Shown piece after piece: positions 25,001 to 42,844 of a stretch of DNA of 64,000 bases. The stretch is from a virus, in the IMG/VR virus record IMGVR_UViG_3300044953_000102, positions 50,944 to 114,943 of that record. One strand, written 5' to 3'. A program made the translations under genes and the position numbers. The notes below the pieces were generated by a model, which saw only the letters and a list, made by a program, of their open reading frames with translations, was not told the DNA's origin and made no database searches. The stretch's first letter is position 1. Every line of letters starts with the position of its first letter.

Positions 25001-27561
25001 CAATTAATAATTTACAAAGATCTGATGCTGTTGTAATTAGAACAATGTCTGGTCCACAATATTTGGGTGGTGTAAATATTGGACCACATCTAATAACATC
25101 AGGTTTTCAAGATAAATCACTAGTTACTTTAGGAACTCTAGTTCAAAATAGTTCTGATCCTGCAATTTTACCAGGACTTCTTCCAGATTTTAATGATGAT
25201 AAAAAAGACTTACCATTTAGTTTACAAATAGCAAGTCATTATGGTGCAATCAAAGGAAGAGTGAGAAATCAATATGGTCAATTGGGTAGTGAATTTCAAA
25301 CAGTTATTACACCATGTGAACAAAAATTATCAAATTATAATGTACAACCTGCCGGGTGGATTTGTCCTACAATTAATGGACAAAATTATAGTGCAAATGT
25401 AATTACAAGAACTCCAATATTTTTTGGAGGAGATACTTATATAAATAGATATACGGAGAAGAACAACATGATGTTCTTTTATAATTGGTTATATGGACAA
25501 CCAGATGGGTTTGAATATAACTACTTCTTATATAGTATGATACCAAGTGCAAGATTTGCTACAAATAGTATTGCATATGATCCAGGAGATTTAGCAGAAG
25601 TTTTTAATTTTAATTCTCCTGCTGTACCTGGTACAGGTGCATTTCCAGGAAGATTTTATAATTTGGACTACTATGTACCAGGTATACTTGGTAATAGAAA
25701 ATATAATTATAATGATGATACTAAAGGTGGTTCTCCAGGATTTTTTCCTTTTCAAAATTTTGTAGAAAGAGAAAAAGGTTTATGGTCAGTAAGAGATGCA
25801 TACTTTTATTTAGCTAACTCAGGAGTAAGGGATTTCTTTGTTGAATCTGAAGTACTTATTGATTTTAGAAAACAAAGTACAAGAGAGGGTGGTAAACATT
25901 ATGATCCTTATAAATATACTGATATTGAAGCTATGTTTGATATGAACCCAGATATTATGGGTAGACTTAGTGAATATATCTATGATTACTCATTAAGTGT
26001 TTCTAAACTATACAATCAATATTTTTCTGTAGGTAGTTTACAATCAAGATATTATGACCCAGAAGTAGCTAAATATTGTTACACATATTATCCAGATAGA
26101 ATAATTTATTCATTACCTCAACAAGATGAAGCAATAAAAGATAGTTGGTTTATCTATTTAGTAAATAACTATAAGGAATTTAAAGGGCAAATATCTGGTG
26201 TTAAGTCAATTAACAAATCTGGTATATTTATTACTTTTAAAAATGAAAGCCCATTAATGTATCAAGGTGTAGATACACTTGAGACAGATTTAAATACTAA
26301 GATTACTATTGGGGATGGTGGATTATTTTCTCAGCCACAACAATCTGTTTCTAATGCCGATAAGGCATATGAATATGGATCATCACAAAATAGATTATCT
26401 GTAATATCTACACCAGCAGGTATATTCTATATGTCTCAAAATCAAGGTAGAATATTTAGTTATGGTCAAGGTTTACAAGAGATATCCCAATCAGGATTAA
26501 AGTGGTGGTTTATTTTATATATGCCATATCAATTAACTTTAGATTTTCCTGAATATCCTTGGACAGATAATCCTGTAGCTGGTATTGGATGTCAAGCAAC
26601 TTATGACAGTTCTAGTGCAGTTCTTTATTTTGCTAAAAAAGACTACCGTCTTAAAAAAGAATTTAAAGGAAGAGTTACATATGAACCATTAGATAGAAAA
26701 GGATTTGGAGATGTTTTTATTCTTGATGGATCTAAAAATTCTAAATACAGACTAGGAGATCCTTATCTTTTTGATGATGCTTCTTGGACAGTGAGCTATG
26801 ACCCTAAACAACAATACTGGGTAAGTTTTCATGACTGGCATCCTGATTTATTAATACCAACTAAAGATATATTCTTAAGTACAAAAGGTAATGGTATATG
26901 GAAACATAATTTTATCTGTGATGGTTTCTGTAATTTCTATGGTCAACAATATGGCTTTGAAATAGAATTTCCAATTGTTACTGGTCAAACAGTAATGACC
27001 ACTAGATCAATGGAATATATTTTAGAAGCATACAGAAGACGTGGTGATAGTTGTATAGATCAACATCATGTTCTTGATTACAACTTTGATACAGCTGTAG
27101 TTTATAATTCAGAACAAGTTTCCGGATACTTAAATTTAAATATATATCCTAAGAACGATATTAATCTATCACTACAATATCCTAAGATAGGTACAAACCA
27201 GTCTTCATACGATATATTATTTTCTAAAGAAGAACAGAAGTATAGATTCAATCAATTCTGGGATATTACAAAAGATCGTGCAGAGTTCCCTATAGGTTCT
27301 AATTATCCTCCTACAGGTCCATTAGTTCCAGGTACTACTCAACTTCTTGGTAATTACTCTTCTGAAAATACTTGGATTACAGCTGCAGATGGATACAGTA
27401 GAATATTAAATCCAAATAATATGGATTATAGTAAACCTGAATTGCAAAGAAAAAAATTCAGACATTACTTGAATTTCTTAAATTTAAGAAAAGAGCAGTG
27501 TAATGATGTTAACGTCATACTCAAAATGTCAAATAGTAAAAATCAATATTCTTCAAGGTAA
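22060..27561 (+). CDS. Tail stabilisation/muzzle protein (P22 gp10-like)
   Basis: 1833 aa; NSFTKGLNKD N-terminus, YLRDEVYTFYI, FFGGDTYINRY and WTVSY..WVSFHDW motifs recalled for crAss Tstab. Confidence 0.8.
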   Translation: MAKYQGLQDTSKSFTNSFTKGLNKDSDPSFVQEGMWTHAINVVNNTIEGDVGTLSNETSNILCASVGRSMPATVTEKFILGAIYLYSDKWIIYSVGYNAIGLAVTSEIGLLEEDVCTYREIVQDPCLSFDKHYLISGASREKEDCSWQVYWADGLNPDRFLNIGDPKLWPTPDYQWVGGTINMNFYSNGSDTTFLWPGVQWEQTCPTPAPAGGGPYVLDCEHCRDVNKLDCPKTRIARLMETPCLNLILGQSGGTLANGTYFAVIAYSIKGQKVTDWFSQSNFQFVYTENDLEGSLTVEVSADSENFDEFILAIVESTNQQTVATQMGIYSTKTSRIAIDQINPSNIKIPLEQIPIQTPVFETSDQMTDVNGYLMRVGPRSKFDFNYQPLANLIRAKWTSVEYPADYYVKGGNKTNYLRDEVYTFYIRWIYDTGDKSASYHIPGRPSKNFQIPGGISMAETDFFNVTNDKNVLATDDQVFEVYNTASFSPYPTTLPGATLVNGKWVLPDGGTLLAVGEMGYWQSSERYPNNRPDIWNPSKYCWTGPAAQIQPGQTEGYYDLCGKNIRHHKFPEDFINNSANTEVMHFRPTTNAATSGDEYFIRIMGVMFENIILPKDQDGNDIPGIVGYEILRGSREGNKTIVAKGMVNNFRTFELKGALAKNRTGLYPNYPYNTIQPIGWSINQNDHNYNVNDPYIKNVGNNNDVVNQDIPTDIFTFHSPDTMFRTPFLSTTEFKLYGSLNGYADMNFQEPNGHPKFKLLSDYVVLPMIIAGVAEAIISMIGRRTINSPTIVPGSGASDAAGAASAAALAAMPIVTGAAASYNAFIGSYYSSGQALADVFLMLAGGYGATQLSAFDQGLAAATAAAATSNVVVPATIAGTIELPDFAYLDPITRTLGALNQIVYYFSEGADIALKIFYAITPYRQYALQQVSHGYYNTMSRISNSLLKRFRIDDSFYMRDNIQQVSKYQDVTTGNYYNYTINNLQRSDAVVIRTMSGPQYLGGVNIGPHLITSGFQDKSLVTLGTLVQNSSDPAILPGLLPDFNDDKKDLPFSLQIASHYGAIKGRVRNQYGQLGSEFQTVITPCEQKLSNYNVQPAGWICPTINGQNYSANVITRTPIFFGGDTYINRYTEKNNMMFFYNWLYGQPDGFEYNYFLYSMIPSARFATNSIAYDPGDLAEVFNFNSPAVPGTGAFPGRFYNLDYYVPGILGNRKYNYNDDTKGGSPGFFPFQNFVEREKGLWSVRDAYFYLANSGVRDFFVESEVLIDFRKQSTREGGKHYDPYKYTDIEAMFDMNPDIMGRLSEYIYDYSLSVSKLYNQYFSVGSLQSRYYDPEVAKYCYTYYPDRIIYSLPQQDEAIKDSWFIYLVNNYKEFKGQISGVKSINKSGIFITFKNESPLMYQGVDTLETDLNTKITIGDGGLFSQPQQSVSNADKAYEYGSSQNRLSVISTPAGIFYMSQNQGRIFSYGQGLQEISQSGLKWWFILYMPYQLTLDFPEYPWTDNPVAGIGCQATYDSSSAVLYFAKKDYRLKKEFKGRVTYEPLDRKGFGDVFILDGSKNSKYRLGDPYLFDDASWTVSYDPKQQYWVSFHDWHPDLLIPTKDIFLSTKGNGIWKHNFICDGFCNFYGQQYGFEIEFPIVTGQTVMTTRSMEYILEAYRRRGDSCIDQHHVLDYNFDTAVVYNSEQVSGYLNLNIYPKNDINLSLQYPKIGTNQSSYDILFSKEEQKYRFNQFWDITKDRAEFPIGSNYPPTGPLVPGTTQLLGNYSSENTWITAADGYSRILNPNNMDYSKPELQRKKFRHYLNFLNLRKEQCNDVNVILKMSNSKNQYSSR

Positions 27562-30500
27562 TGTATAATAAAAAAATTCTTATTGATGCGCTAAAGAAGT
27601 TAGGAAGTGCCAAAGCTCCAGCTCAAAAAAAAGACATAGTAGTAGGTTCAAATAATCCTACTGAAATGTTTGCTATGCAAAAAGGTTTTTCACCATATGA
27701 CAAAAAGTTAAATGTAAAAAAATCTAACATACATGGTAAAGGTTTATTTACTGAACAACCACTTAAAAAAGGAGAACTAATTGGTTTAGCACATGTTAAT
27801 AATCAACCTACACCTATTGTTGGTAATTTTCATAATCATTCTGAAAATAATGCAACAGCATTAAGTATACGTAGGGGTAATCAAAGATATTTAGTTGCTG
27901 CAAAAGATTTAGAACCCGGTACAGAAATTACAACTAATTATAGATTGCAACCTGAATTAGGTCAACCAGAAGATTTTTTACATTCAATAAATGAAACTCC
28001 TACTGCTAGACGTGGTGGTTCAGCTCCAAAACTTCCAAATAAAAAAAACTCAAGAGCCTACTCAAGAAGTCTTGATGCTACTAATAGACTATTTGCAGAA
28101 CATCCTTGGTTTAAAAAATCTAAATCTAGAAAGAATAAGATTTATGATCCTAATGCTAAATACTATCAGGATGGTGGAGAACAAGGATGTCCAGAAGGTT
28201 ATACATACAATCCAGAAACAAAAAGATGTACAAGAAAAAACACAAATTGTCCTGAAGGTTATTTCTTTGATGCACAAGAAGGAAGATGTAAATCTAAAGC
28301 TTATAGAGAAAAATTTGAATTATATAATAAAGGCACTAAAATTACACCAACTGAAGAAGAAGAATCTTATTCTTATTGGCCAGATGATCTTACTTTAAAA
28401 TATCTAGATAAAGATATAATGAATAATCCAGAAGGTTCTGAAGTTAATAGACCATTTTTAATAAACCCTATTAAAACAATTGGTATTTATAATCCTGAAA
28501 GAGAATATGAAGAAGATATTGATGACAGATATCTAGCTGATACATACGTTAATGTATATCCAGATTTAAATTACCAAGTAGTTGTAGATCCTAGTAAGCC
28601 AAAAGGATATAATGCAGACAAATCTATATACTATGTTCCTGATGAGAATAATTTTGAATTTGAAAAATTTAAACAATATAAAAAACTAAAAGAAATTGAA
28701 AAAGAAAACTTATCAAATCTTGCAAAATATCCAAATTTAATAACAAAAGAATGGCAAGAAGATTATAAGTATCGTCCACAGGATGATCCTAAACTATTTT
28801 TAGATGCTGAATATTATGGTCAAGGTCTTCCGGGTTATTATACAAACCTAACAAACATGCCTTTTGATAAATATAAAAATTCAATAAAAAGAGAATTTAA
28901 TACGGGTTGTAAAGATTGTAAATATCATTATGGTATAAGTCATGAATATAATGATGATTATAATATCAACTTAATTAATCTTGGACATGTAAAAAAAGGT
29001 CTTAAAAGCAATGACCCTTCTTATGACATAAGAAATATAAAAGAATATGATTATGTAGATCTTCCAGATGAATCTATAATACCAAGATTTGACTTAGAAT
29101 CTGCTGATACAGAACCACCTATTTATAGAGAAGGTGATCCAAGTATGCTAGTACCTCATATGAGATTAGAACCTGGCAAAAAAAAATCTAAAAAACATAG
29201 AGGACGTTTAATGTATGGTAAAGGTCAAAAATATAAATGGACTACTTATAGACAAACTAAAGATTTAGAGTTTGGTACACATAAAACTAATAGACCTATA
29301 CCAGCTTTAGTTCAAAAATTTACAGGTTATGATCCTAAATATTATCAAGGTTATGATAAAGAAGTAGGTGATGAAACTGAATTTGTTCCTGGAGAAATTG
29401 AAAGAGCAGAGCAAGAAGGAAGAAAAGTTAACTTTAAAGGTGCGGCTACACTTAGAGATTTAAAAAAACAAAAGGAGTATGAAAGACAATGGTTAGAATA
29501 TCAAAAACAAAAAGATGAAGTAAGACAAAGAAATGAGGATTACTTAAAACAATATAATATTACCCCTGAAGAATATGAACAATACTATGGTCCTTTTAGA
29601 AGAGGAGGACAATTACCTAAAGCTCAATATGGAATACCACAAGAGTTTTATCAAAACTGGTATCAAAATAGGGTAATGCCTACTCCAGAAGGACAAAAAC
29701 TTTTAGATAAAATACGTCCTGAAGCTTTAGAAAGATCAAGACAAATGATACCTTATATTTATTCTGATAAACTAAAACTAGATGATGCAGGATATTATGA
29801 TACAAAAACTCAAGAAATAATTTTAAATAAGTTTTTACCAGAAGCACAAATAGAAGCTACAAAACAACACGAGTTTGGACATCATATACAAGCAGGAAAT
29901 AAATTTTATAATGTTTTAGATAAACCACATCAATTTCTTGTTGAACAAAATATTGTAGAGCCTGAAAAAATAAGTACAGGAAATTCAGAATGGGATGAAA
30001 AATTAAAAGAAAACTATGATTATGTAACTCAACCAGACGAAATGCATGCAAGAGTAATGACTCTTAGAAGATTAGCTGGATTTCAACCTAATCAAGTTAT
30101 TACTGAAAAAGATCTTAAAGATTATTTTAATAGAGTAAAGGAAGCTGGGGAAGCATTAGACCCAGATATAGAAGATCTAAGAGGAGTTACTAAAGGAAAT
30201 CAATCTATAGTAAATCTATTAAATGATATGGTCTCTGTTCCTAGTAATAGAGAAGATTTACAAGTTGCTAAGTATGGTGTTGAATTAGATCTTACAGAAG
30301 ATGAAATTAAAAAATATGTGGATAGAGGTTATGTGGTAGAAGACATTTCTATACCTTCATTAACAAAGATGAAAAAAGGTGGTTTACCTTGTCCACCTTT
30401 TTGTTCACCATTAATTGAACTTTCAAAAGGCTTGTCATCTATTGCACAAAATATTCCAAAAACAAATTTTTTAGGAAGGGGAATAGCAAATACTGCAACA

Positions 30501-31562
30501 ATTTTAGATGAAGGTTTGGGACAAGCTTTTTTAGCTAAGTCTAACGCAGATGCAATATCTGCAGGTAATAAATGGTTACATAATTGGATACAACATCCTA
30601 CAACACAAATGAAAATTCAAGCTGATATGTTGGATGTAATAAACAATAAAAATTTAAATCCTTACAGGATTAAATATGAAACACCAAGATATGGAGATAT
30701 TGTTCTCAATCCAGAAGAACAATATACAGAAGCATTAAAGATTGCTCAAAATTATATGCCTGATGCTAAACCATATTCTTTTGAAAATTTCTTTTCTAAT
30801 TTAAAAGAGGATAAATTAAATCCAATGTTTGATGTTATGGGTATAACATACAAACATCAGTCAGATCCTATTATGCGTAGTTTATATAGTCATGCATTTT
30901 TTAAACCAAACAGTACTCAAATTGATACTGACTATAAACCTTTTAAACATTATGGGACATTTATTAGAAGAAGTCCATCATTTAGTCCTTATCAAAAAGA
31001 ATTAGTAACAATACATGAAGGTACACATGAGTGGATAACAGATAAATTGTTAAAAGAAACTGGTCAAAAAGATTTAATCTTAAGCAGTATTGATCCAGAA
31101 ATTAAAAAACTTTTTGATAAATGGTCAGTAGATCGTGAAACAAAAGATTTAACTGAGGATGAAAAAAAGCTTGCTTATCTATCAAATCCAACAGAAGTGC
31201 ATGCAAGAATAATGGAATTAAGAAGACATAATAATTTAACTCCTTCTGATTATGTTGATGAAAATATGGCAAAAAAATTTCTTGAACAAATTAAAAATAA
31301 AGAAATATCTGGCGGCAAAGAATTTGCAACAGTTTTAAAAAATGATCCTAAAACATTATCTAAATTAATGAATGATTTATATAATATTTCAATTCCTTTG
31401 GGTGTTGGTATTGGAGGAGCATCTTTATTAAAAAATCCATACAAAGAAGAATCACCAATTGGTGGATATAAAATGGGTGGAGAGTTTGAATTAGGTGATG
31501 AAGTAGATGAAGTTACTATGAAAGAATTAAAAAAATTAGGTTTTACATTTGAAAAAATATAA
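27561..31562 (+). CDS. Modular virion cargo protein: SET domain, Cys hairpins, two zincin-like (HExxH) domains
   Basis: SET motifs KSNIHGKGLF, FHNHS, GTEITTNY (~27708-27950); CPEGY repeats; HEFGH (29868) and HEGTH (31014), each followed by PxExHAR. Confidence 0.7.
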   Translation: MYNKKILIDALKKLGSAKAPAQKKDIVVGSNNPTEMFAMQKGFSPYDKKLNVKKSNIHGKGLFTEQPLKKGELIGLAHVNNQPTPIVGNFHNHSENNATALSIRRGNQRYLVAAKDLEPGTEITTNYRLQPELGQPEDFLHSINETPTARRGGSAPKLPNKKNSRAYSRSLDATNRLFAEHPWFKKSKSRKNKIYDPNAKYYQDGGEQGCPEGYTYNPETKRCTRKNTNCPEGYFFDAQEGRCKSKAYREKFELYNKGTKITPTEEEESYSYWPDDLTLKYLDKDIMNNPEGSEVNRPFLINPIKTIGIYNPEREYEEDIDDRYLADTYVNVYPDLNYQVVVDPSKPKGYNADKSIYYVPDENNFEFEKFKQYKKLKEIEKENLSNLAKYPNLITKEWQEDYKYRPQDDPKLFLDAEYYGQGLPGYYTNLTNMPFDKYKNSIKREFNTGCKDCKYHYGISHEYNDDYNINLINLGHVKKGLKSNDPSYDIRNIKEYDYVDLPDESIIPRFDLESADTEPPIYREGDPSMLVPHMRLEPGKKKSKKHRGRLMYGKGQKYKWTTYRQTKDLEFGTHKTNRPIPALVQKFTGYDPKYYQGYDKEVGDETEFVPGEIERAEQEGRKVNFKGAATLRDLKKQKEYERQWLEYQKQKDEVRQRNEDYLKQYNITPEEYEQYYGPFRRGGQLPKAQYGIPQEFYQNWYQNRVMPTPEGQKLLDKIRPEALERSRQMIPYIYSDKLKLDDAGYYDTKTQEIILNKFLPEAQIEATKQHEFGHHIQAGNKFYNVLDKPHQFLVEQNIVEPEKISTGNSEWDEKLKENYDYVTQPDEMHARVMTLRRLAGFQPNQVITEKDLKDYFNRVKEAGEALDPDIEDLRGVTKGNQSIVNLLNDMVSVPSNREDLQVAKYGVELDLTEDEIKKYVDRGYVVEDISIPSLTKMKKGGLPCPPFCSPLIELSKGLSSIAQNIPKTNFLGRGIANTATILDEGLGQAFLAKSNADAISAGNKWLHNWIQHPTTQMKIQADMLDVINNKNLNPYRIKYETPRYGDIVLNPEEQYTEALKIAQNYMPDAKPYSFENFFSNLKEDKLNPMFDVMGITYKHQSDPIMRSLYSHAFFKPNSTQIDTDYKPFKHYGTFIRRSPSFSPYQKELVTIHEGTHEWITDKLLKETGQKDLILSSIDPEIKKLFDKWSVDRETKDLTEDEKKLAYLSNPTEVHARIMELRRHNNLTPSDYVDENMAKKFLEQIKNKEISGGKEFATVLKNDPKTLSKLMNDLYNISIPLGVGIGGASLLKNPYKEESPIGGYKMGGEFELGDEVDEVTMKELKKLGFTFEKI

Positions 31563-31564
31563 TC

Positions 31565-34156
31565 ATGGCTAAGTATAGAATTACCAGTATACCACAGTCT
31601 TTACCAAAAGCGCAATTAGGTTTATTTAAAAATAAAAATACATCTCCATTATGGGAAGCTCAATCTGTTCCAGTTTTTCCAGATCAAGAATCTTCTATTG
31701 AAGATGTTATGCCTAGAAGAACTGCTGAAGAACAAGCTAATATTTTTCCTATTATAAATCCAGATTTGTCAGGTTCTGCTGAATATGATTTTTCAAAAAG
31801 TTGTCCAAATCGTCAAATTTTTTATAGAGGTCAATGTGTTAGTGAAGATGTATTAAATGTAATTCTTCAAAGAGAACAAGAAACTGAAAAATTTCAAGCT
31901 AAAGAAAGTTTTAGAAATCAACAAATTGCACATAATAAAATGCTTGATGATTTGTATATAAAAAATATGCAAATAGCTCAAGAAGAAAAAAATCTTGCTC
32001 AAAAAATTAAACATGAAGATTATGTAAAAGATTTTAAAAAATCAAAAAAATCTACACAAATAAAACCATTAGACGTATTTGATACAAATACATTAAGTGA
32101 AATGGTTCCAGTTATTGGGGATGATGGAAAAGTAGTAATGGATGAAGAGACTGGTAAACCAAAAATGCAAACAAGAAGAGAAGCACTTAGTTCACAATAT
32201 CTTTTAATTGATAATGATGAAAATAGTAACATTGGTTCAACTGGAACTACTTCTGCTTGGCCATTAGCAGTTGTTGCAGATAGAATTTACAATAGTGGAT
32301 TTCAACCAACACAGTTTAAAACAATATGGAAATTTAATGATGACCAAGTAAGACAAGTAAAAGAACAAACTGGTTCATTAATGGAAAATGCAAAAAATGC
32401 ATATGATAATGAAGCATATAATAGAATTTTAAAAAAAGCACTTGAGCTCAACATTACACCAGAAGAAGCTGCAAAAATTGTTGCTGGAAAAAATTCTAGT
32501 TTTGGATATGCAGAAAGTCTAACAAAAGAATATGCTCCCAATGTTCAGAAAATTATAAATACAGCATTTGAAGATCTTATGAAAAAAACAGGATCAAGTG
32601 CTGATGCAGAAAAACTTAGTCCTACTCAAAAAGAATTATTGCTTAATTTAGAAGAAACAAAGGATCAACAATTCTTAAATATAAATGGTGGTCATTATGT
32701 AACAGATAAAGATGGTTATAAAATATGGGTTCCTCCCGGAGTAGGAGCAAATATAATGCCACTACCTGCTGAAAGTACTGCAGTAAGAAATAAGATAGGT
32801 GCATGGACTACAGATCCTGCAACAGGTAAAAAACAGTGGGTTGCACCTAATAATAATACAGCTTATGAAAATGCTCAAGCTGAAAAACTAATTAAAGAGC
32901 AAGAAAATATGGTTGCTCAAATACAATATGCTGCTTTAAGAAGATTAATTGAATCTCCAGATGTTACTGATGCAGAAAGATTAAAAATAGCTAACGATCC
33001 AAAAAAACTTGAAAAACTAATAAGTGAATATGTAAATTGGTCTTATTCACCTGAAGGAGAATTTGATCCACGTAGAGAACAAACTCAAGGTGAATATAGA
33101 TATACTCCTGGACATTTAAAATCAGATTTTAAAATAACTCCTGAAGGTGCACAATGGTCTCCTGGTCGCTATGGTCAGGGAAGATATATTGATGGTCCTG
33201 TAAATATGGTTTATCCTGAGAAATATGTTATGGGACCTGGTGCAGGAGTTCTTGGTGGAGGTCTTAGATTACTTAATAAACCACTTGCTAGTTTTATTGG
33301 AAGTAGTGCTGCACCTTGGTTAACTGCTGGTAATTTATTTGGTGCTTATACTATATATAATGCAGTTAGACCAGAAGGAACTATTTCAAGTGCATATGAT
33401 AAATTTTCAGAGGGTGATTATAAAGGTGGTGCTTTAAAAAGTCTTGAAGCAGCATTGGAGTTGTTTCCCACTGTAGGTATTATTTCAAAAGGTGCTAAAT
33501 TATTAAAGTCAACACCAAGATTTTTTGAATATACTGCTCCTTCAGGTAGAACTTTTGGTCTTGGAAATGCAAACTTACCAAATATAACAACTGCAGAAAA
33601 ACCTGAGCAATTTCTTAGTTTAATGACAGGTAGTAATGCTTCTCAGTTAAAAAATTTATATTCAACAGAAGCTGATATTATAAATGCAGAAAAAGCACTT
33701 GCTAGTGGTCAAGCATTTCCAAGATATACATTTACTCATCCTGCAAAAACACAATTACAACTTGAACAAGCATATCAGAATTTAGATCCTAAAGAATTTA
33801 TGCTTAAGAATTTAGGATTTAGATTAGGAGAAAGTTCACCTATTGAATTTGGAACTTTTAGTCAACCTACAAAATATTCAACAAAATTTGGAGAATTTAC
33901 TTTTGGCCCTAAAAGATTTTATCCTGCTAAACTTGAGAGTATAGATTTTAAATCACCCACGGTCTATGATGAAGGTTCTGTAAATATGTTAGGTCTTAAA
34001 GAAGGAGGTTATCTACCACAAGCTCAAGGAGGGTTAATTGCATTAGCTAAAAATTTATCTAAAGGTTTAGCAATTCCAGTTTCATCTACAGTGTCTGCAT
34101 TAAGAAAAATACCAGCAACATATACTGCAATTGCTGAAGGTGGTAATTTATTTTAA
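31565..34156 (+). CDS. Putative virion cargo protein (probably continues by +1 frameshift to 34478)
   Basis: 863 aa; N-terminal MAKYRI..PKAQLG, internal LKEGGYLPQAQGG; ends TTT-TAA. Confidence 0.65.
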   Translation: MAKYRITSIPQSLPKAQLGLFKNKNTSPLWEAQSVPVFPDQESSIEDVMPRRTAEEQANIFPIINPDLSGSAEYDFSKSCPNRQIFYRGQCVSEDVLNVILQREQETEKFQAKESFRNQQIAHNKMLDDLYIKNMQIAQEEKNLAQKIKHEDYVKDFKKSKKSTQIKPLDVFDTNTLSEMVPVIGDDGKVVMDEETGKPKMQTRREALSSQYLLIDNDENSNIGSTGTTSAWPLAVVADRIYNSGFQPTQFKTIWKFNDDQVRQVKEQTGSLMENAKNAYDNEAYNRILKKALELNITPEEAAKIVAGKNSSFGYAESLTKEYAPNVQKIINTAFEDLMKKTGSSADAEKLSPTQKELLLNLEETKDQQFLNINGGHYVTDKDGYKIWVPPGVGANIMPLPAESTAVRNKIGAWTTDPATGKKQWVAPNNNTAYENAQAEKLIKEQENMVAQIQYAALRRLIESPDVTDAERLKIANDPKKLEKLISEYVNWSYSPEGEFDPRREQTQGEYRYTPGHLKSDFKITPEGAQWSPGRYGQGRYIDGPVNMVYPEKYVMGPGAGVLGGGLRLLNKPLASFIGSSAAPWLTAGNLFGAYTIYNAVRPEGTISSAYDKFSEGDYKGGALKSLEAALELFPTVGIISKGAKLLKSTPRFFEYTAPSGRTFGLGNANLPNITTAEKPEQFLSLMTGSNASQLKNLYSTEADIINAEKALASGQAFPRYTFTHPAKTQLQLEQAYQNLDPKEFMLKNLGFRLGESSPIEFGTFSQPTKYSTKFGEFTFGPKRFYPAKLESIDFKSPTVYDEGSVNMLGLKEGGYLPQAQGGLIALAKNLSKGLAIPVSSTVSALRKIPATYTAIAEGGNLF

Positions 34157-34478
34157 TATAGGTTCAGCAAAAGGTGTTCCTGGTCGTGCTACAGATCCAT
34201 TAACTAATACCGCAAGAGGAACTGGTTTACATACAAGACAATGGATAAGTGGTAAGGGAAATCAAATAGGCACTATTGATCCTACTTTTAGATTTACGGA
34301 TATGAACAAAATGAGTGCTAAAGATTATTTAGAAATGGAAAGAGAAAAAGAAGACTTAATAAAGCTTTTTAATACTGGTTGGAGAGGTCATTATAAAAAA
34401 GGTGGTGTTTCAATGAAACTTTCTAAAAAAGAAATTGATCAATATATCAAAGATGGATATATAGTTGAGGATGAATAA
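34131..34478 (+). CDS. +1-frame continuation of 31565 ORF (C-terminal part)
   Basis: Poor TTG start; overlaps the upstream stop; ends with the cargo C-terminal motif YKKGG..LSKKEIDQYIKDGYIVEDE. Confidence 0.55.
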   Translation: MLKVVIYFNIGSAKGVPGRATDPLTNTARGTGLHTRQWISGKGNQIGTIDPTFRFTDMNKMSAKDYLEMEREKEDLIKLFNTGWRGHYKKGGVSMKLSKKEIDQYIKDGYIVEDE

Positions 34479-34519
34479 ACTTTATAAGTTTATTGATTAA
34501 ATTAAAATTTAGTATATTT
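34474..34519 (+). promoter_or_regulatory. Perfect palindrome AATAAACTT-TAT-AAGTTTATT overlapping putative promoter TTTA-N20-TATATTT
   Basis: 9-bp inverted repeat at 34474-34494; near-copies at 4298 and 42786. Confidence 0.6.
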
Positions 34520-34536
34520 AATATATAATATATCTT

Positions 34537-37500
34537 ATGAAAAAATCTGTAAGAATAAGAAAAGCACTTCCAGGAGAAAAACCAGGGTATTATAATAAGA
34601 CAGCCAAGTTTTTGAAAAAGGCTCAAATGGGCATGGAAGTAAATTCACCAAGTAATGATCCTCAAAGATTAAATGCAATATATACTAATGTATATGCTTC
34701 TTTAATGTCTGACATTACTCCAGATGTAATTTATAGTTCATTAATTGGTGAGTATGCTTTAGATGAGAATACTGCTCTTATGATATTAAGATCTGCATTA
34801 GGAAAACTTGCAGAAGAAGGTAAAATTGATCCAGAGTCTTTAGAGGGTGGTAATTCACAACAAAATCAAAAACAAGAAGAACAACCTAGTGAAACACAAG
34901 ACAGAGAAAGTCAAGAAGAATATGATCAACGCATGTCTGAAGATGCTGAACAAGATGAGTTGGCAATGTCAGATGAAGGTTATTATGATGAAGAAGAAGC
35001 AGCAAATAATGATAATTCTCATTTAGATACCGAACAAGAACAACAACAACAGGCTTTTGCATTTGGTGGTTACTATGATACGGGTGGTGAGTCAGATGAA
35101 GATTATTCAGATTACTATGATGATTCAAATCAAAGTTCTTCTCCAGAAAATGCTGTTATAAATCAATATAATAATCCTGGTCAAAATAAAATGAAGAAAC
35201 CTTTTTCTATGGAAGATCTAATAAATATGACACCAGGTATTCAAGGTACTCAATCTGTACCAGGTATAGAAGATTATTTAGGAGATTATAGACCTATATC
35301 AGAATCATATGGGTCAATGGATTACTTACCACAAGCACAATGGGGAGGATTAAGTTTACTACCTGGTTTAACAAGACAAGTTGAAAAAGGCATAGAAGCT
35401 TTTAATAAAGGCTATAGTGCAATTAGGGGTTTAAGTCCAATGACTAATGTATCAGGTATAAGAAAAGCACTTCCACTTGCTACATTAACAGGAGAAGCTT
35501 TAACTAAATTACCATATATTGGAAAAAAATTAGCTCCACAATTAAAAACCACATTTACACAAAACAGAAATCATTTATGGAAGGTTTTAAATGGTGCTGG
35601 TCCAAATCAAGAAATTTTTGGAAATGTTGGAACTCGTGCTAATCCTGATGGTAGTTTACAAGTAAATAGATTATTACTATATCAAGATGATGTAGCAAAA
35701 ATAGTTAGTCAAATTGAAGACTCTGGAAGTCCTGCTGCAGTTATAGAACCAGATGGTTCAATGAGTTGGGATTATAGCAAAACACTTCCTGAAAGAAAAG
35801 TATTTGAGCTTGGTGAAGTACAACCAATGGCTGCAGCAGATGGTTTAGTAAGTGGTGTATATCCCATGAATTCTAAAGTAACTGGTGGAGTGGATGATAA
35901 AGGAAATAAATTTTTTGAGATTTCACATAAATTTGGCCCTAATCAAACATTACCTTTTGGATCAACATCAAGTAAAGCAAAAGAATTAACATTTAAAAAT
36001 AGATTTTATTATAAAACTGTAGTTGATCCTGCTACTAATCAAACATCTATTAAAGTGTTTGGACCATTGGGAGAAGAATTAACACCTGGCACTCAAACTA
36101 AATTTAAAATACAAAGACCTTTTATACCATCTGTATTAAGAACTGTAGCAGAAAAATTTTTGCAAGATCCTAATACACCTTTTCCAAATTTTCAAGTAGA
36201 TTTTGGAAGAAATCCAAACGGTCCTTTTACAAGTAGGGTTGGTCGCGTAGATATTACTTCTACTCCACCATCTACAGTAGATAGGTTAAGTACTAGGGGT
36301 AAAATTGGTAGAGGTTTAGAAAATTTTGCTTTAAGTACTTATATACCACAAATATTTGGATTAGGTAATCCATTAAGAACATCTCCAAAAAATGTAACTC
36401 CATTAAAACTTCCAGTTCTTGGATATACAAGTTCTGCATTAGGTCCTAATGTTGTTAATCCAGCACTTGAAACTGGTGTTGCTAGTGACATTGCAAATGC
36501 AATGAACTATAAATATAGAATAGGACGTAATGCATTAATAGGAGCAGGAGGATTAGGTTACTTAGGGTATAAGACTTGGGATGCTTTTTATAATCAGTGT
36601 CAATGTGATAATCCAACAGGTAGAAATTATATGCCTAAAGATGAGTATGGTAATTGTCCTTGTGGAGGAGATGTTGATGATAAAAGAATACTAGATCCTA
36701 CAGAACAGCCGACTGTTCAAGATATTATGAAGTTTTTGGATGAGCAGGGTCTTTATCCTACTGAAAAAGATTACTATAGACTTAAAGGAAAAAATAAAAG
36801 AAGTAAAGCTGTTGATTATAAAACTGGAGGTATAACAGAAAAACAATTTGTAAAAGCATTCTCTTCTAAATTCCAAGATGGTGGACCTCAAGATCAATCA
36901 TTGGGTAAAGGTAAAAGAATGGATACCCTTACTAATGATGTAGAAGCTAGAAAAGATATCTTTAAAAGTAAACTTAAAGATAATTCTAATGTAGCTCTTA
37001 CAAAAGAAATTTATAAAAATGCACAAAGTAATCCTCAGATCTTAAACATGTTAATGCAAGATGGTCCTAAAGAAAATCTTGCTGAAGATACAGGAATGCA
37101 AACAGCACAATTTGGAGGAGTTCCTAATTGGTATACTGGATATAACACAGCTTTATCACCAAAAGAGTATAGAAAGTTATATAGACAAATGAAAAGAATG
37201 ATACCAAGAGGTCTAGATATATCTAGAGCTAACATGGCATCAAACTTTTATGACAATAGATTTATGCAGCCAGGTTACGGTACAGTAGTTACTACACCTG
37301 AGTATATGAATATGCTTGCTATGTCTTCATTACCATTGTACAAAAGTGCAGCCAATGTTTATGGAGGTGGTAGAAAACCTTCTGAATTACAAGCATATGA
37401 AGCTACAGCAATCAATAATGAAAAAGGAATACCATTACTTCCTGAAATGACTCCAGACTTTATTGATTCTCCATTAGTAAGGGGTTCAGGTGGTCAATTT

Positions 37501-39366
37501 ATCGCAGGTGATGAAAATCTTTTGACATATGATCAAGGAGGTTTTGTAGATATGGATGCTGAAAATCCTTTAGTAAGATTTATCTACGGTGGAGATGAAA
37601 CCGGATACTATGAACCAGAAGATTTACCAATGGCTCAATTTGGTCAAAATATAATGAATAAAGATCTTGAGCAAAGAGTAGTAGGGGATAAATTATCATA
37701 TGATGATTGGGTTGAGGGTGAAAGAGATGATTTTGCAACAACACATCCTGGTGAAGATTTTGATACTTGGAAAGCTGGTCAAACTGGTCAAGATGATTAT
37801 AAAAAATATGAAGATTTTTATGGTAAATCTTTATATGATTATACAAACTTTGATGATCCAAATGTAAATCCTAATCCAAATAATAATCCAAATAATAATA
37901 CACAAAATGGTAAAAATTGTCCTCAAGGATATGTTTGGAATGCAACATATAATGCATGTATACCGGTAGCTCAAGTTACTTATAATCCAAGAGTTGTTAG
38001 AGGTCAATCAGGATTATTTAGAAATTTAGCTCCTTGGAATCCAGCATTTGGTTATGCAGGATCTTGGACAAAACAAATGTCATTACCATATCAATTAGGT
38101 TCTCGTAATCCTTATATGGGTCAACTTACCGGTGCACCTGCTGCACGATATGTTACCAAAAAAGGAATATTTGGAAAACCTAAAAAATGGATTGATATTT
38201 ATGATGTTGATGCAGCAGATGATATTTTAAGTAATTACGATTATGTGGGTCCAGAAAATATAAACTCATATGATAATAATAATATGCAGCAAACTAGAAA
38301 AAAAAGTTCTGGTGATAGACTAGATAGACGGATTGCAAGATGGGATAGAAGAGCTGCAAGAAATGAAGAGGAGTATGAACCTATGGAAGGTGCTATTACA
38401 AACTATGAAAACCCAGATGATTTTTATAATGCAATAAATCCTGTTTCTAGAGAAGATGCTCAATTCTTAGGTGCTGGTTATACTGCTTCTGAAGATTATA
38501 AAAATAAAGGTAAAGTAAGAACAGTTAGAGATGCAGAAGGTAACTGGTATGATAGAGATGATAAAATGATACCTGGTAAAAAAGCTCCTTCAGAAGTTCC
38601 TGGATATTATGATAAAAAAAGTAATTTAACAAAAGATGAACTTAAGTTACTTGAAAATTTAAAATATTTTAGACATGGAGGTTTACATACATATGGGCCT
38701 GGTGGTGCTAATGATCCTAATACTAATCCACCGGCTTGGATGTCAGGTCCTAATCCAAAACAATATGGCACATATGATGGAAATATGATAAGTCAAGCAC
38801 CAATGGGTACAACCAAAGGTTTTGATGAGTTTGGTAATCCTGTAAGTCAAGCACCAGCATTTGGTATTCAACCACCAGCAGCTGCATCACCAGAAAACTA
38901 TTATGTTAAAGATCAAAATCCAATTAAAAGAAATTTAGTTGGGGTAGAAAATAAAAGAAAAGACATGTTTAATGTTGATTCAGAATCTTTTCTAAATCAA
39001 ACTAATGCATTTGCAAGAGGAGCTTTAAATTTATTTGATCCTGAGAAAAAAAGACAATGTGGTCCTGGAACTACTTGGAACTCAAGCACACAAACATGCC
39101 AACCTACAGATGCAATGGATATCTATGCTACAGCTACTGAACAAGATAGAGGTGACTGGACAGATATAGGTTCTAAGGCTGGTCTATATAGATATGATCA
39201 AGAAGGACAAGATAGAAGCAGTAGAGCAACCTTTGGTCAGTATGGTGGATACATGCAAGATGGTGGTTTTTATGACCCATATTACGAAGAGGATGAAGAA
39301 GTAATTATGACTCCTGAAGAATTAGAACAATTCTTGGCATCTGGAGGACAAGTTGAATATTTATAA
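34537..39366 (+). CDS. Large putative virion cargo/ejection protein
   Basis: 1609 aa; many xxxGG motifs, acidic stretch, hydrophobic ALIGAGGLGYLGY segment, Cys hairpins; position between muzzle and RNAP. Confidence 0.65.
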   Translation: MKKSVRIRKALPGEKPGYYNKTAKFLKKAQMGMEVNSPSNDPQRLNAIYTNVYASLMSDITPDVIYSSLIGEYALDENTALMILRSALGKLAEEGKIDPESLEGGNSQQNQKQEEQPSETQDRESQEEYDQRMSEDAEQDELAMSDEGYYDEEEAANNDNSHLDTEQEQQQQAFAFGGYYDTGGESDEDYSDYYDDSNQSSSPENAVINQYNNPGQNKMKKPFSMEDLINMTPGIQGTQSVPGIEDYLGDYRPISESYGSMDYLPQAQWGGLSLLPGLTRQVEKGIEAFNKGYSAIRGLSPMTNVSGIRKALPLATLTGEALTKLPYIGKKLAPQLKTTFTQNRNHLWKVLNGAGPNQEIFGNVGTRANPDGSLQVNRLLLYQDDVAKIVSQIEDSGSPAAVIEPDGSMSWDYSKTLPERKVFELGEVQPMAAADGLVSGVYPMNSKVTGGVDDKGNKFFEISHKFGPNQTLPFGSTSSKAKELTFKNRFYYKTVVDPATNQTSIKVFGPLGEELTPGTQTKFKIQRPFIPSVLRTVAEKFLQDPNTPFPNFQVDFGRNPNGPFTSRVGRVDITSTPPSTVDRLSTRGKIGRGLENFALSTYIPQIFGLGNPLRTSPKNVTPLKLPVLGYTSSALGPNVVNPALETGVASDIANAMNYKYRIGRNALIGAGGLGYLGYKTWDAFYNQCQCDNPTGRNYMPKDEYGNCPCGGDVDDKRILDPTEQPTVQDIMKFLDEQGLYPTEKDYYRLKGKNKRSKAVDYKTGGITEKQFVKAFSSKFQDGGPQDQSLGKGKRMDTLTNDVEARKDIFKSKLKDNSNVALTKEIYKNAQSNPQILNMLMQDGPKENLAEDTGMQTAQFGGVPNWYTGYNTALSPKEYRKLYRQMKRMIPRGLDISRANMASNFYDNRFMQPGYGTVVTTPEYMNMLAMSSLPLYKSAANVYGGGRKPSELQAYEATAINNEKGIPLLPEMTPDFIDSPLVRGSGGQFIAGDENLLTYDQGGFVDMDAENPLVRFIYGGDETGYYEPEDLPMAQFGQNIMNKDLEQRVVGDKLSYDDWVEGERDDFATTHPGEDFDTWKAGQTGQDDYKKYEDFYGKSLYDYTNFDDPNVNPNPNNNPNNNTQNGKNCPQGYVWNATYNACIPVAQVTYNPRVVRGQSGLFRNLAPWNPAFGYAGSWTKQMSLPYQLGSRNPYMGQLTGAPAARYVTKKGIFGKPKKWIDIYDVDAADDILSNYDYVGPENINSYDNNNMQQTRKKSSGDRLDRRIARWDRRAARNEEEYEPMEGAITNYENPDDFYNAINPVSREDAQFLGAGYTASEDYKNKGKVRTVRDAEGNWYDRDDKMIPGKKAPSEVPGYYDKKSNLTKDELKLLENLKYFRHGGLHTYGPGGANDPNTNPPAWMSGPNPKQYGTYDGNMISQAPMGTTKGFDEFGNPVSQAPAFGIQPPAAASPENYYVKDQNPIKRNLVGVENKRKDMFNVDSESFLNQTNAFARGALNLFDPEKKRQCGPGTTWNSSTQTCQPTDAMDIYATATEQDRGDWTDIGSKAGLYRYDQEGQDRSSRATFGQYGGYMQDGGFYDPYYEEDEEVIMTPEELEQFLASGGQVEYL

Positions 39367-39374
39367 CATAACCA

Positions 39375-42300
39375 ATGATAAAAGTTAGAATTAAAAAGTT
39401 ACCTCAAGCAAGAACTGGATACCAAGTTCAAGGAGCATTAGTAAATGACGTACCTGCTATGGGAGGTGCAGACTATAATGCATACATTGGTGCACCAAAA
39501 CTTCGGGAAAGTAAATACATCAAAGCTGTCCCTAGAGATGAAGCAAATCTAGAAGCAGAAGGTAGAGAAACAGTATATGGAGACATCAATGGTGATGGAA
39601 TGCCAGAACATAAAATTATTGTTGGTCCAAGACATGCTCAAGGTGGAGTTCCTTTAAATCTTCCAGAAGATACTTTTATTTTCTCTGACACAAGAGCAAT
39701 GAGAATAAAAGATCCAGAATTACTAAACATGTTTGGTAAAGGAGGTACAAATAAATCTTATACTCCGGCAGAACTAGCTAAACAATACGATGTACAGAAG
39801 TATAGAAAAATACTAGAAGATCCTGAGACAGATGCAATAGAAAGAAAGACTGCAGAGTTAATGATCAAAAAGTATGTTGTTAAACTAGGCTGTCTTGCTC
39901 TTGCACAAGAATCTATGAAAGGATTCCCACAGGGTATCCCAGCAGTAGCAAAACCATGTATGGAAGCTAGAGGTTTAACTGAGCAAGATATTCTACCTAA
40001 TAAAGAAATATCTGTTCTAAATGATCAGTTAAAAAAACAAATGGAACAAGAAGGAGCGACAGATGAAAACATACTTCAACAAGCTGAAGAGATGAATGAT
40101 GGTAATCCTGTTGCACAACCACAAGAAATGGGTCCTCCTCAAGAACAAATGGAAGCTCCTTCACCAGAAGAAATGATGATGTATAGTGGATATAGAAGAA
40201 GATTAAGAAGAGCACAAGAAGGAATGCAACAACCATCTCCTGAAGAAATGGCAATGATGCAACAGCAACAACAAGGTGGTCAAGATGAAATGGGTGAGAT
40301 AATGAAAGAAGTTGCAAATGCTCTTCAAAGAGGTGCTGATCCTTCTGAAGTTGTTATGAGTTTATTACAGAACAACATTCCACCAGATGCAATTGTACAA
40401 ATATTTACACAACTTGGTGCTGAACCACAACAAGCTGCTCAAATAGTACAGCAAGTAATAGCACAGGCCCAAGGTGGTGGTCAAGAACAAATGATGCCAC
40501 AAGAACAACCTATGTCAGAAGAAGAAGCAATGATGATGCAACAACAACAGATGCAACAACAAGCTCCTCCTATGGCACAGTATGGTATGACAATGGGTGG
40601 TTATGATATGCCATTCTATGATATGCCAGAAGCTGCTTATGGTATGGCAATGGGTTCTGGTCAATCTCAAAACTATCAAGGAAGGCCTAAAAGAATTCCT
40701 GGATCAGGTCCTATGTTTCCATTAACTAAAGCAGGGAATGGAATAACTATTGATGCTTCTAATATGACTAATGAACAACTTCAAAGAGCTATTTGGGATG
40801 CACAACAAAAAGATAAAAATGCTGAAATTACTGTAACTCGTAAAGATGCTAATGGTCAAGTAAAAACACAAAAACTTAAATCATCAGGATTTATGATTCC
40901 TGAAGGTAAGGATATTACAGATTTAAAAGGTTTTCCAGATACACCTGCAGGAAGGGTTGCTGCAGCACAATATTTATTAATTGAAGAAAACTTAAATAAT
41001 TCTACAGTTAAAGCTGAGATTATTAAAAATACTAAAGAAGCACTTGAAAATCCAGATGCTTGGACAGGTAAAGGTGGTACAAGAAATGCTAATAATACTT
41101 GGTCAAATAAATATGGTGCATTACCTTCTGATGAGGAAATTATAAAACAAGCATTAAATCATCAAAAAAGAAATTTGATGTTTGAAGCTAATGAAATTGA
41201 TCCGCAATTATTTTCTGATGTTGGTCATAAACTTGATGATGTTGATACTGTACTTAATAAAGGGTACGTTAATCCAAAAACTGGACAAAAATATACAAGA
41301 GCTGAGGCAGAAGCAGCACTTAAATCTCTTAATGTTAAAGGTTTTACTAATGTTGCTGCAATGTCAAATATACTAGGAGTTCCTTTAGACCCTAAAGGAA
41401 AAGATAGAGTTCTCCAGCAAGGAACAATGCACGGATATGCAAAAGCATATCAAAACTTTTCATCTGGTGCTTATAACTCTAATCCAGATGCAAAATATGC
41501 TATGGATAATTTTTTGGGTAATGTAAGTTTAGTTCACTCAGGTGCGGATGATGAAACTTCAATGGGAGCTTTGTATGGATCAATAGGTAATAGAATATCT
41601 CCTCTTGATGATAAATATGATTATTCAGATAATAATTGGTATCAAAAAAATTCTGGCAGATTAGTGAAAGGTAAGTTTACTACTTATGGAGATACAACAG
41701 CTGGTCATAAATATATGGTTGGTAAAAGAAATCTAGAATTTGAAGATATTCCAGAAAGTGGACCTTGTCAATGTGAAAAAGATAAATTACCTGATGGATC
41801 ACCGGACCCTTCATATAAACCAAAAGATGCTCAAGGTAATTGTACTTGTGATCCTCCAAAACCTAAAGATTGTCCATGTCAAAAATCTGATGGTACAGTA
41901 ATAAACATGACTGCAAATGCAGATGGTACTTGCCCGCCTTGTACAGAACCTAAAGATATACCTGTACCAGGTCCTCCTGCTGAATGGTGGTTACAAGATA
42001 CAATTAAAACTACCGGTGCATTTGGAGATTTAATGGGAGTTAAAAAGTATATGCCGTGGGCAGCTCCTGCAAAACTTCAAACACCAAGACCTACATTCTT
42101 AGATCCAACAAGAGAACTTGCTGCTAATGCAGAACAAGCAAATATACAAACTGCAGGTATGGCACAGTTTGCTGGACCACAAGCACTATCTGCAAGATCA
42201 TCAAGTGTTCAAGGTCAAGCTTCTAAGAATGCTGCAGATATACTTTCTAAATATAATAATGCTAATGTTAACATAGCAAATCAGTTTGAGATGAAAGCTA

Positions 42301-42788
42301 CAGACATTAGAAACCAGGAAAGTATGTTGAATCAAGCAACACAGCAAAGATTGTATGATCAAAATACAATTGCTAATCAACAGTTTGATAATGCTAAGTT
42401 GGCAATGAGAAACAACTTAAGAAATTACTATACTAACGCAATTACCAATAGATGGAAAACTGATGCATTAAATCAGATGTTCCCGAACTATCAAGTATCT
42501 CCAGGAGTAGGTGGACAAATGTATTATCAACCTACAGCAAAAACAACTAATCCTTCACAAACTTCAGGAAAAACTAAAGAAGAATGGTTTAAGTGGTGTA
42601 AAGATAATGGTGATCCAAATCCTTCTGCATGTGCTAATAGAATGATGAGTGGTAATAATTCAAATTCAGGAGGTGGAGCAGATCCAAATATGGTAAATAC
42701 TATGTATGGAACAGCTAGAGATGGTGGAGAAATGTTTGAAGATGGTGGTTTTGTTTATATTGATTCATGGCTTCCATTTATCATGTAA
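39375..42788 (+). CDS. Cargo protein (crAss cargo-1-like N-terminal domain)
   Basis: NLEAEGRET...GPRHAQGGV..FIFSD motif recalled from crAss cargo proteins; Q/M/P-rich linker; N/Q-rich coiled C-terminus. Confidence 0.65.
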   Translation: MIKVRIKKLPQARTGYQVQGALVNDVPAMGGADYNAYIGAPKLRESKYIKAVPRDEANLEAEGRETVYGDINGDGMPEHKIIVGPRHAQGGVPLNLPEDTFIFSDTRAMRIKDPELLNMFGKGGTNKSYTPAELAKQYDVQKYRKILEDPETDAIERKTAELMIKKYVVKLGCLALAQESMKGFPQGIPAVAKPCMEARGLTEQDILPNKEISVLNDQLKKQMEQEGATDENILQQAEEMNDGNPVAQPQEMGPPQEQMEAPSPEEMMMYSGYRRRLRRAQEGMQQPSPEEMAMMQQQQQGGQDEMGEIMKEVANALQRGADPSEVVMSLLQNNIPPDAIVQIFTQLGAEPQQAAQIVQQVIAQAQGGGQEQMMPQEQPMSEEEAMMMQQQQMQQQAPPMAQYGMTMGGYDMPFYDMPEAAYGMAMGSGQSQNYQGRPKRIPGSGPMFPLTKAGNGITIDASNMTNEQLQRAIWDAQQKDKNAEITVTRKDANGQVKTQKLKSSGFMIPEGKDITDLKGFPDTPAGRVAAAQYLLIEENLNNSTVKAEIIKNTKEALENPDAWTGKGGTRNANNTWSNKYGALPSDEEIIKQALNHQKRNLMFEANEIDPQLFSDVGHKLDDVDTVLNKGYVNPKTGQKYTRAEAEAALKSLNVKGFTNVAAMSNILGVPLDPKGKDRVLQQGTMHGYAKAYQNFSSGAYNSNPDAKYAMDNFLGNVSLVHSGADDETSMGALYGSIGNRISPLDDKYDYSDNNWYQKNSGRLVKGKFTTYGDTTAGHKYMVGKRNLEFEDIPESGPCQCEKDKLPDGSPDPSYKPKDAQGNCTCDPPKPKDCPCQKSDGTVINMTANADGTCPPCTEPKDIPVPGPPAEWWLQDTIKTTGAFGDLMGVKKYMPWAAPAKLQTPRPTFLDPTRELAANAEQANIQTAGMAQFAGPQALSARSSSVQGQASKNAADILSKYNNANVNIANQFEMKATDIRNQESMLNQATQQRLYDQNTIANQQFDNAKLAMRNNLRNYYTNAITNRWKTDALNQMFPNYQVSPGVGGQMYYQPTAKTTNPSQTSGKTKEEWFKWCKDNGDPNPSACANRMMSGNNSNSGGGADPNMVNTMYGTARDGGEMFEDGGFVYIDSWLPFIM

Positions 42789-42830
42789 ACTTTATAGGTT
42801 TATTAAACTAAAAAAATTTTAATAGTTTTA
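42786..42830 (+). promoter_or_regulatory. Palindrome TAAACTTTATAGGTTTATT overlapping putative promoter TTTA-N20-TAGTTTT
   Basis: 18/19 identity to the 34476 element; same spacing to a TAnnTTT box. Confidence 0.55.
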
Positions 42831-42844
42831 CACAAAGACAAATT

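Follow-up and report, generated by a model that had tools for sequence, protein, structure and literature searches.

Acidic tails and basic heads of consecutive genes as putative halves of one junction module in the cargo block of an uncultured crAss-like phage

The window analysed here, the right-hand 64 kb (64,000 nucleotides) of a 114,943-bp virus record estimated to be 96% complete (IMGVR_UViG_3300044953_000102), comes from an uncultured crAss-like phage and carries, directly after the gene for the muzzle protein, a block of large plus-strand genes, here called A, B, C, D and E, followed by two giant genes, F and G. It is solely their position after the muzzle gene, as for gp45 and gp46 of crAss001, that suggests that A to D encode cargo that would be packed into virions and carried into the host cell. 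Proteins A, B and C end with an acidic motif (the tail), and B, C and D begin with a basic motif (the head). The best-supported statement that we can make is that these terminal motifs are the two sides of a single junction module of mosaic cargo polyproteins. This 45-residue element consists, in order, of Gly-Gly, strand 1, a helix (LTxxEIxxY), a second Gly-Gly, strand 2 (YIVEE) and a tag of the form hPxAQxG(G). Within polyproteins the module runs without interruption. At the A|B, B|C and C|D boundaries, a stop codon and a start codon separate strand 2 from what follows, and the downstream protein carries an additional basic strand (M..[KR]V[RK]I.K) ahead of the tag. The genes and elements concerned are the following, in window positions.

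27561 to 31562, plus strand: gene A, a putative mosaic cargo polyprotein of 1333 amino acids (aa).
29604 to 29633, plus strand: free-standing junction tag in A, GGQLPKAQYG, aa 682-691.
30249 to 30383, plus strand: internal junction module of A, (KYG)VELDL-TEDEIKKYVDRG-YVVEDI followed by SIPSLTKMKKGG (independent E-value 2.3e-6).
31461 to 31559, plus strand: tail of A, GG-EFELGDEVDEVTMKELKKLGFTFEKI; the stop codon is at 31560-31562.
31565 to 34156, plus strand: gene B, first frame, 863 aa.
31565 to 31621, plus strand: head of B, basic strand MAKYRIT and tag SIPQSLPKAQLG, 2 nucleotides (nt) past the stop codon of A.
34377 to 34475, plus strand: tail of B, KKGG-VSMKL-SKKEIDQYIKDG-YIVEDE, in the +1-frame open reading frame (ORF) 34155-34478; the top profile match of the genome, with 53 bits.
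34537 to 39366, plus strand: gene C, 1609 aa.
34537 to 34635, plus strand: head of C, basic strand MKKSVRIRK and then ALPGEKPGYYNKTAKFLKKAQMG (predicted hairpin, helix and tag).
39265 to 39363, plus strand: tail of C, DGG-FYDPYYEEDEEVIMTPEELEQFLASGGQVEYL.
39375 to 42788, plus strand: gene D, 1137 aa.
39375 to 39419, plus strand: head of D, basic strand MIKVRIKK and tag LPQARTG, 8 nt past the stop codon of C.

All four copies of the tail motif, at the ends of A, B and C and inside A, were confirmed from the translations. When the whole 114,943-bp genome was searched with a profile of the motif, these four copies were the only matches (independent E-values from 3e-15 to 2e-6), and the opposite strand gave nothing comparable. 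A chance origin of the copies was rejected, since all four matches reach E ≤ 2e-6 and the 115 kb contain no others. The initial annotation, which had placed the motif at the ends of three successive proteins and once internally, thus gave all four locations correctly, except that the copy ending at 34475 is out of frame with the ORF at 31565-34156. The first-frame ORF of B stops at TTT-TAA (34151-34156; TTT-TAA-T to 34157), and the +1 frame, which lacks a good start, runs on for 108 codons to the conserved tail. Because B is a single ORF with the same tail in three relatives (L001, L005 and L007), the window carries a +1 shift; this shift at a shifty stop may reflect programmed frameshifting, a recent mutation or an error of assembly.

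The tail comprises about 30 residues, namely Gly-Gly, a short strand, a helix of the form [LM][TS]xxE[IL]xx[YF], another Gly-Gly, and a second strand at the very end of the protein. It comes in three flavours, each bound to one junction: GDEVDExTMxELxKLGYTFEKI for A, LTxKEIDxYIKxGYIVEDE for B and (G)DEVxMTxEELxxFLAxGGxVEYL for C. The charges of the two elements are opposite, the tails being acidic and the heads carrying +4 to +5. Tails are 52% identical among phages whose A and B bodies no longer align. The same codon is used at 68% of the identical tail residues, compared with 67% in an interior stretch of D; synonymous divergence in the tail is normal, and the conservation therefore lies at the protein level, conservation of the nucleotide sequence being rejected by this comparison. 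In an all-against-all BLAST of the window proteins, the sole match was that of the internal copy of A to the tail of B (E = 0.008), and accordingly broad paralogy offers no explanation of the motifs.

The head consists of Met, 0-5 residues, the basic strand [KR]-V-[RK]-I-x-K and the hPxAQxG(G) tag. It is present at the N-termini of B, C and D and absent from those of A, E, F and G. The basic N-terminal strands that had been noted at 31565, 34537 and 39375 are real and are conserved in relatives. In the head of C, a hairpin and a helix (GxYxNKTxxFLxKAQxG) lie between the strand and the tag, according to the secondary structure of the homologue from L031 predicted by AlphaFold2. A search of the six-frame translations of 94 loci from related viruses with a head profile gave 76 unique matches at N-termini and no genuine match inside a protein. 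After every head comes a G, GG or AQxG site. Within the window, hPxAQxG tags occur in A to D only, including a second tag in gene C (YLPQAQWGG, aa 263-272), and E, F and G contain none of the tail, head or tag motifs. In one relative (L084, 7187-7321) the head of D is tandemly duplicated, MPRVRIKRLPSNK-RKVRIKKYPS.

What joins the tail to the head is the sequence that follows the internal copies of the tail. Internal copies run on as ISIPSLPKAQLG (L005) or ISVPELNQAQKGG, and protein B of the window begins MAKYR-ITSIPQSLPKAQLG; the internal stretch ..GGYIIED-ISIPSLPKAQLGK of L005 matches the second half of this B head. More generally, internal copies are followed by SVPxL[TN]xAQxG(G), DxYxxGG or PxAQxG. 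Because the tag half of the B head is the sequence found after internal modules, tail and head tag together form one module, with the gene boundaries inside it.

The continuous form of the module is the common one. A profile search over 1.84 billion representative proteins returned 1113 matches at E ≤ 0.001, 213 of them at E ≤ 1e-10. The best 150 of these 1113 proteins are mostly A-type polyproteins with 2-4 modules each, and contain 229 internal and 122 terminal copies. Hence the tail element is not restricted to termini, about two-thirds of its copies being internal; the head alone is exclusively N-terminal. Across the loci of the relatives, the tail profile matched 120 terminal and 33 internal sites and none on the minus strand. 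In 86% of 351 modules, compared with 14% of background windows, a Gly-Gly precedes strand 1 by no more than 16 residues, and Gly-Gly dipeptides occur at 1.4-1.6 times expectation in A-D versus 0.8-1.1 times in E-G. The internal copy of A in the window (aa 897-929; 30249-30347) has its counterpart inside gene A of every relative. It had been taken as the mark of an ancestral gene fusion; the internal junction is indeed of the same kind as the gene boundaries, but the internal state is common (about two-thirds of copies) rather than the rare relic of a single fusion.

Besides its internal junction module and its terminal tail, protein A contains a SET-like module and two putative zincin modules with HExxH motifs. 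The SET-like module (27702-27947) matches the Pfam SET profile with 25.4 bits, against a cut-off of 22.4. The zincin motifs are HEFGH near aa 780 and HEGTH near aa 1163 (modules within 29800-31200); the peptidase profile PF20573 scores 21.3 bits, below the cut-off of 27, and the metallo-protease family PHROG 87 gives E = 6e-4. The SET-like module and both HExxH modules are each flanked by Gly-Gly or junction elements. A comparison with relatives shows strong mosaicism in A and B: alignments cover the N-terminus, the SET region, the modules and the tails only, and the intervening cassettes are different. The module joints are clearly sites of cassette exchange.

The association of tail and head was followed across the 94 loci, which were collected by scans of viral contigs and belong to one large uncultured clade; a further scan gave the same synteny. 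The gene order muzzle-A-(B)-C-D-E is conserved in this clade. We counted 101 unique junctions with a tail and a head, 92 identified by automatic rules and 9 divergent pairs by eye, and among these 101 unique junctions of relatives there was no case of a tail-ending gene followed by a gene without a head. The co-occurrence of the two motifs in adjacent genes, which the initial annotation had proposed as a check, is thus borne out: in 101 of 101 cases the tail is followed by a head, and heads are N-terminal only. The observation that the pattern stops as a unit, with D lacking the tail and E lacking the head, likewise holds in the window and in the relatives, where the 62 unique D|E junctions have neither a D tail of this type nor an E head. 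Neither motif is present at the 27 unique muzzle|A junctions. The cultured relatives of the muzzle protein, Flavobacterium phage FPSV-S29, Cellulophaga phage phi17:2 and a Leptolyngbya phage, are all distant; when FPSV-S29 and phi17:2 were checked, neither the module nor the head was found.

A natural fusion provides a further view of the C|D junction. In L002/L076, L051, L059 and L069, a single protein corresponds to C and D, and its C-terminal half aligns with D from residue 10-20 on. The fused junction reads ..SKYGGVPHMKMGG-PKGKTGQQVDYSLGIFPTAMGG.. (..YGGVPHMKMGG-PKGKTGQQVDY...), and its split counterpart ..YGGYMQDGG-[tail]-stop-[MIKVRIKKL]-PQARTGYQVQGALVNDVPAMGG.... The fusion removes exactly the tail, the stop codon, the start codon and the basic strand; the Gly-Gly before them and the tag after them are retained. 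The four fused lineages group together in one clade (support 96/81), which takes a nested position when the tree is rooted at its midpoint, and the fusion is most simply a single deletion event. It shows that both elements are dispensable once the link between C and D is covalent.

We tentatively favour the view that consecutive cargo proteins dock head to tail in gene order, while placing it clearly below an even chance. The basic N-terminal strand of the downstream protein would add to the acidic strand-helix-strand tail of the upstream protein, and this strand addition would restore non-covalently the link that is covalent within polyproteins. Packing, and perhaps ejection from N- to C-terminus, would then involve a single chain of A, B, C and D in gene order, and the short distances at A|B (2 nt) and C|D (8-10 nt), which couple these genes tightly, would favour assembly on the same mRNA. 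Docking would explain the strict rule that a tail implies a head, the confinement of the basic strand to N-termini, the opposite charges, the A|B and C|D coupling, and the fused form. The larger proposal, in which a non-covalent train from A to B to C to D sets the capsid stoichiometry and the ejection order by gene order, and covalent and non-covalent links are interchangeable in evolution, receives a slightly lower probability. Natural in-frame read-throughs of the junctions, with stop codons read as Gly, were modelled with AlphaFold2. In the C|D read-through of L030 (4-residue spacer, 19 naturally paired rows), the model contains a strand at residues 19-22, a helix at 24-32, a strand at 36-43 and the head strand at 46-53, with a predicted local distance difference test (pLDDT) score of about 83 in the core; a Foldseek search of this model against the PDB found nothing below E = 1. 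The model indicates compatibility only, namely that the head can extend the sheet of the tail. The L031 model suggests that the head of C is arranged as strand, strand and helix.

Several observations weigh against docking. The short covalent link biases the L030 model, which had no control, towards a hairpin, and the B|C read-through of L031 (20-residue spacer) is uninformative because the spacer itself folded as strands. If each motif were a signal dependent on a free terminus, the loss of both elements upon fusion of C and D would be expected just as much. For the internal copies, about two-thirds of the total, there is no free basic strand that could be bound, which implies that the module has a role for which no head is needed. 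According to the E-protein tree, the terminal tail was lost upstream of C about 9 times; the head was lost in two of the tail-less lineages (L042 and L046/49) and kept in seven (L002/L051, L033/35/39, L050/72, L061, L067, L081 and L084). The upstream proteins of all tail-less lineages retain internal modules, and heads without an upstream terminal tail might, in principle, still find one of these, an argument that rescues docking rather than evidence for it. Finally, junction types are inherited by synteny and independent events are few; given this inheritance and the single C-D fusion event, the tail-head association rests on a small number of independent events. The tail and head variants are likewise specific to clades, so that any covariation between them is confounded with shared ancestry.

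Two observations on gene C of relatives and on the gene upstream of it stand beside these. An alternative tail, GG-x(2-9)-KL-x-[KR]-F-x-x, recurs upstream of C in L002, L033, L039, L042, L046, L049 and L051, which represent four separate lineages; the basic strand is gone from the next gene in two of them (L042 and L046/49) and kept in the other two (L002/L051 and L033/35/39). In L027 (region 6401-6550), gene C is split into parts of 1315 aa and 249 aa; the boundary thus created lacks both tail and head, and this split may be a recent break or a frameshift.

Almost as probable as docking is that the elements bind no partner and are independent sorting or processing tags, bounded by Gly-Gly and read by a common machinery. 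Such machinery could act in procapsid incorporation in the manner of the T4 capsid-targeting leaders, or in cleavage of the polyproteins by the putative zincins of gene A; the placement at consecutive termini would then arise merely because the gene boundaries fall inside the junction module. The frequency of Gly-Gly before strand 1 (86% against 14% in the background) and its enrichment in A-D fit this explanation, as do the G or GG after every head, the free-standing tags such as GGQLPKAQYG at domain borders, and the two HExxH modules of gene A; among the domains of polyvalent phage proteins, zincin peptidases are the most frequent, and it has been proposed that they process these proteins (PMC5512222). 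The persistence of heads without upstream terminal tails, the majority of internal copies, and the existence of other tails preceded by Gly-Gly (GGFVYIDSWLPFIM in D and GG..KLxKFxx in the lineages with the alternative tail) point the same way. However, E, F and G, which are expected to be cargo too, carry none of the motifs, so that these are not a general packaging signal; a plain cleavage site needs neither a 30-residue folded element nor a basic strand confined to the N-terminus; and the Pfam peptidase match is below the cut-off (21.3 vs 27 bits). Docking and independent tags remain close as explanations and are compatible, in that a pro-form could dock and then be trimmed.

The motifs might also be recombination joints, that is, homology arms at the DNA level for swaps of cargo cassettes, with the peptide as a tolerated flexible linker. 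The strong mosaicism of A and B, in which only the N-terminus, modules and tails align, and the appearance of tail-less variants about 9 times via replacement of the last cassette agree with such a role. Nevertheless, it is improbable as the sole explanation: the synonymous sites of the tail diverge as fast as those elsewhere, which implies selection on the peptide, and amphipathic strands, a helix and invariant Gly form the pattern of a fold. Serving as an exchange joint is compatible with a function at the protein level. Still less probable, and in our judgement very unlikely, is that the terminal motifs are inert left-overs of linkers after fission of a giant polyprotein gene, with no intermolecular function now. 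The homology of the split and continuous forms and the majority of internal copies would be expected from such a history, but both halves have been kept in about 100 unique junctions, in a clade of 1113 representative proteins, while the bodies diverged beyond alignment, and the basic strand is an addition seen only at N-termini.

Nonribosomal peptide synthetase (NRPS) and polyketide synthase (PKS) assembly lines reportedly use beta-hairpin docking domains, which are said to have been the subject of work by Richter et al. in 2008 and Hacker et al. in 2018. The likeness to these systems lies in the short complementary C- and N-terminal elements arranged in gene order, the opposite charges and the proposed strand addition, and in the absence of the elements where both subunits are one polypeptide, which in the phages is one evolutionary event. 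There is no sequence relation, and the polarity is reversed, the folded element being C-terminal and the strand N-terminal here. The phage tail and head are, moreover, a candidate pair, the folded element is mostly internal, and the proteins would be virion cargo, not biosynthetic enzymes. The internal proteins of phage T4 reportedly carry a capsid targeting sequence, said to have been described by Mullaney and Black in 1996. Like that leader, the head is a short conserved N-terminal sequence on several proteins with a candidate cleavage site after it; unlike the head, which A, E, F and G lack, the T4 leader reportedly occurs on every packaged internal protein, and it is not known to have a C-terminal partner.

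Polyvalent proteins are large and mosaic, combining exchangeable effector domains with zincin peptidases; they are delivered with the DNA, and self-processing has been proposed for them (Iyer et al. 2017, PMC5512222). A and B resemble them in their mosaic multidomain architecture with exchangeable domains; however, that work describes no junction module and makes no mention of crAss-like phages, whereas here a defined 45-residue element is found that is also split across genes. In crAss001, the cargo genes gp45 and gp46 directly follow the muzzle gene, and their products are packed in the capsid and the tail (Bayfield et al. 2023, PMC10172136). Ejection of this cargo from N- to C-terminus through the tail has been proposed, and its order has been suggested to depend on packing and on cargo-cargo interactions (PMC10172136). 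The proteins analysed here have no detectable homology to gp45 and gp46, the block contains 4-5 genes instead of 2, and no terminal motifs have been reported for crAss001. In the literature on crassviruses, we found no published description of the junction module.

The other features of the block are as follows.

22060 to 27561, plus strand: muzzle protein gene; Pfam PF25731 (crAss_MUZ), 93.3 bits vs a cut-off of 27.
34476 to 34536, plus strand: B|C spacer with the conserved element TAAACTTTATAAGTTTA...TTTAGTATATTTA, which is also present in the D|E spacer (42786-42844).
42744 to 42785, plus strand: tail of D, of a distinct type, with Gly-Gly before GGFVYIDSWLPFIM; kept across the clade (..YPFIL or ..FPFMFY in relatives).
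42845 to 46036, plus strand: gene E, without a head, at which the motif pattern ends.
From 46047 and from 53470, plus strand: two giant, polymerase-like genes, F and G.

None of the proteins A-E matched the profile of cargo protein 1 (PF25725, crAss_CARG1) at E ≤ 5, the sole match in the genome being one of 12 bits in gene G; the identification of the cargo genes as cargo protein 1, a high-scoring lead from the Atlas, was rejected because this profile has no match in A-D. Genes C and E had no match among GenBank phages by megablast and tblastn, and hence have no close relative there. A sequence search of the PDB with D and E also gave no match.

The spacer element TAAACTTTATAAGTTTA...TTTAGTATATTTA starts at the stop codon and contains the inverted repeat AAACTT/AAGTTT; the spacers are 46-65 nt long, and the element is kept across the clade (L001, L005, L007, L010, L014, L031 and L045). 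It is probably a terminator/promoter unit. Because the A|B and C|D spacers are only 2-10 nt long, A and B on the one hand and C and D on the other look like coupled pairs. At the D|E boundary, the N-terminus of E (MATYLQGVTD.IP..QPFQPD) is strongly conserved, with the near-invariant start MATYLQGVTDYIPDYQPFQPD (42845-42910), and the tail of D and the start of E could be a second, different junction pair. In seven loci (L012, L033, L037, L040, L070, L082 and L092), a small ORF of about 211 aa, MATYLQSSPGIYKITN..IYIGC, lies at the start of E. It copies the first 5-6 residues of E, its motifs resemble, by eye only, those of GIY-YIG homing endonucleases, and its placement has the look of an inserted homing endonuclease gene.

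It is an open question by what means podoviruses select, count and arrange the proteins that are injected ahead of the DNA, and for crassviruses the only structural study merely suggested an order from packing and mutual contacts (PMC10172136). In the clade analysed here, a short conserved element marks every join between cargo cassettes, in at least 1113 representative proteins. Because nature provides covalent and split versions of the module together with one fused control, the question becomes directly testable. If the tail and the head are a docking pair, they would be candidates for a tool that brings foreign proteins into phage particles; if the module is a cutting site, it would define the specificity of the cargo peptidases.

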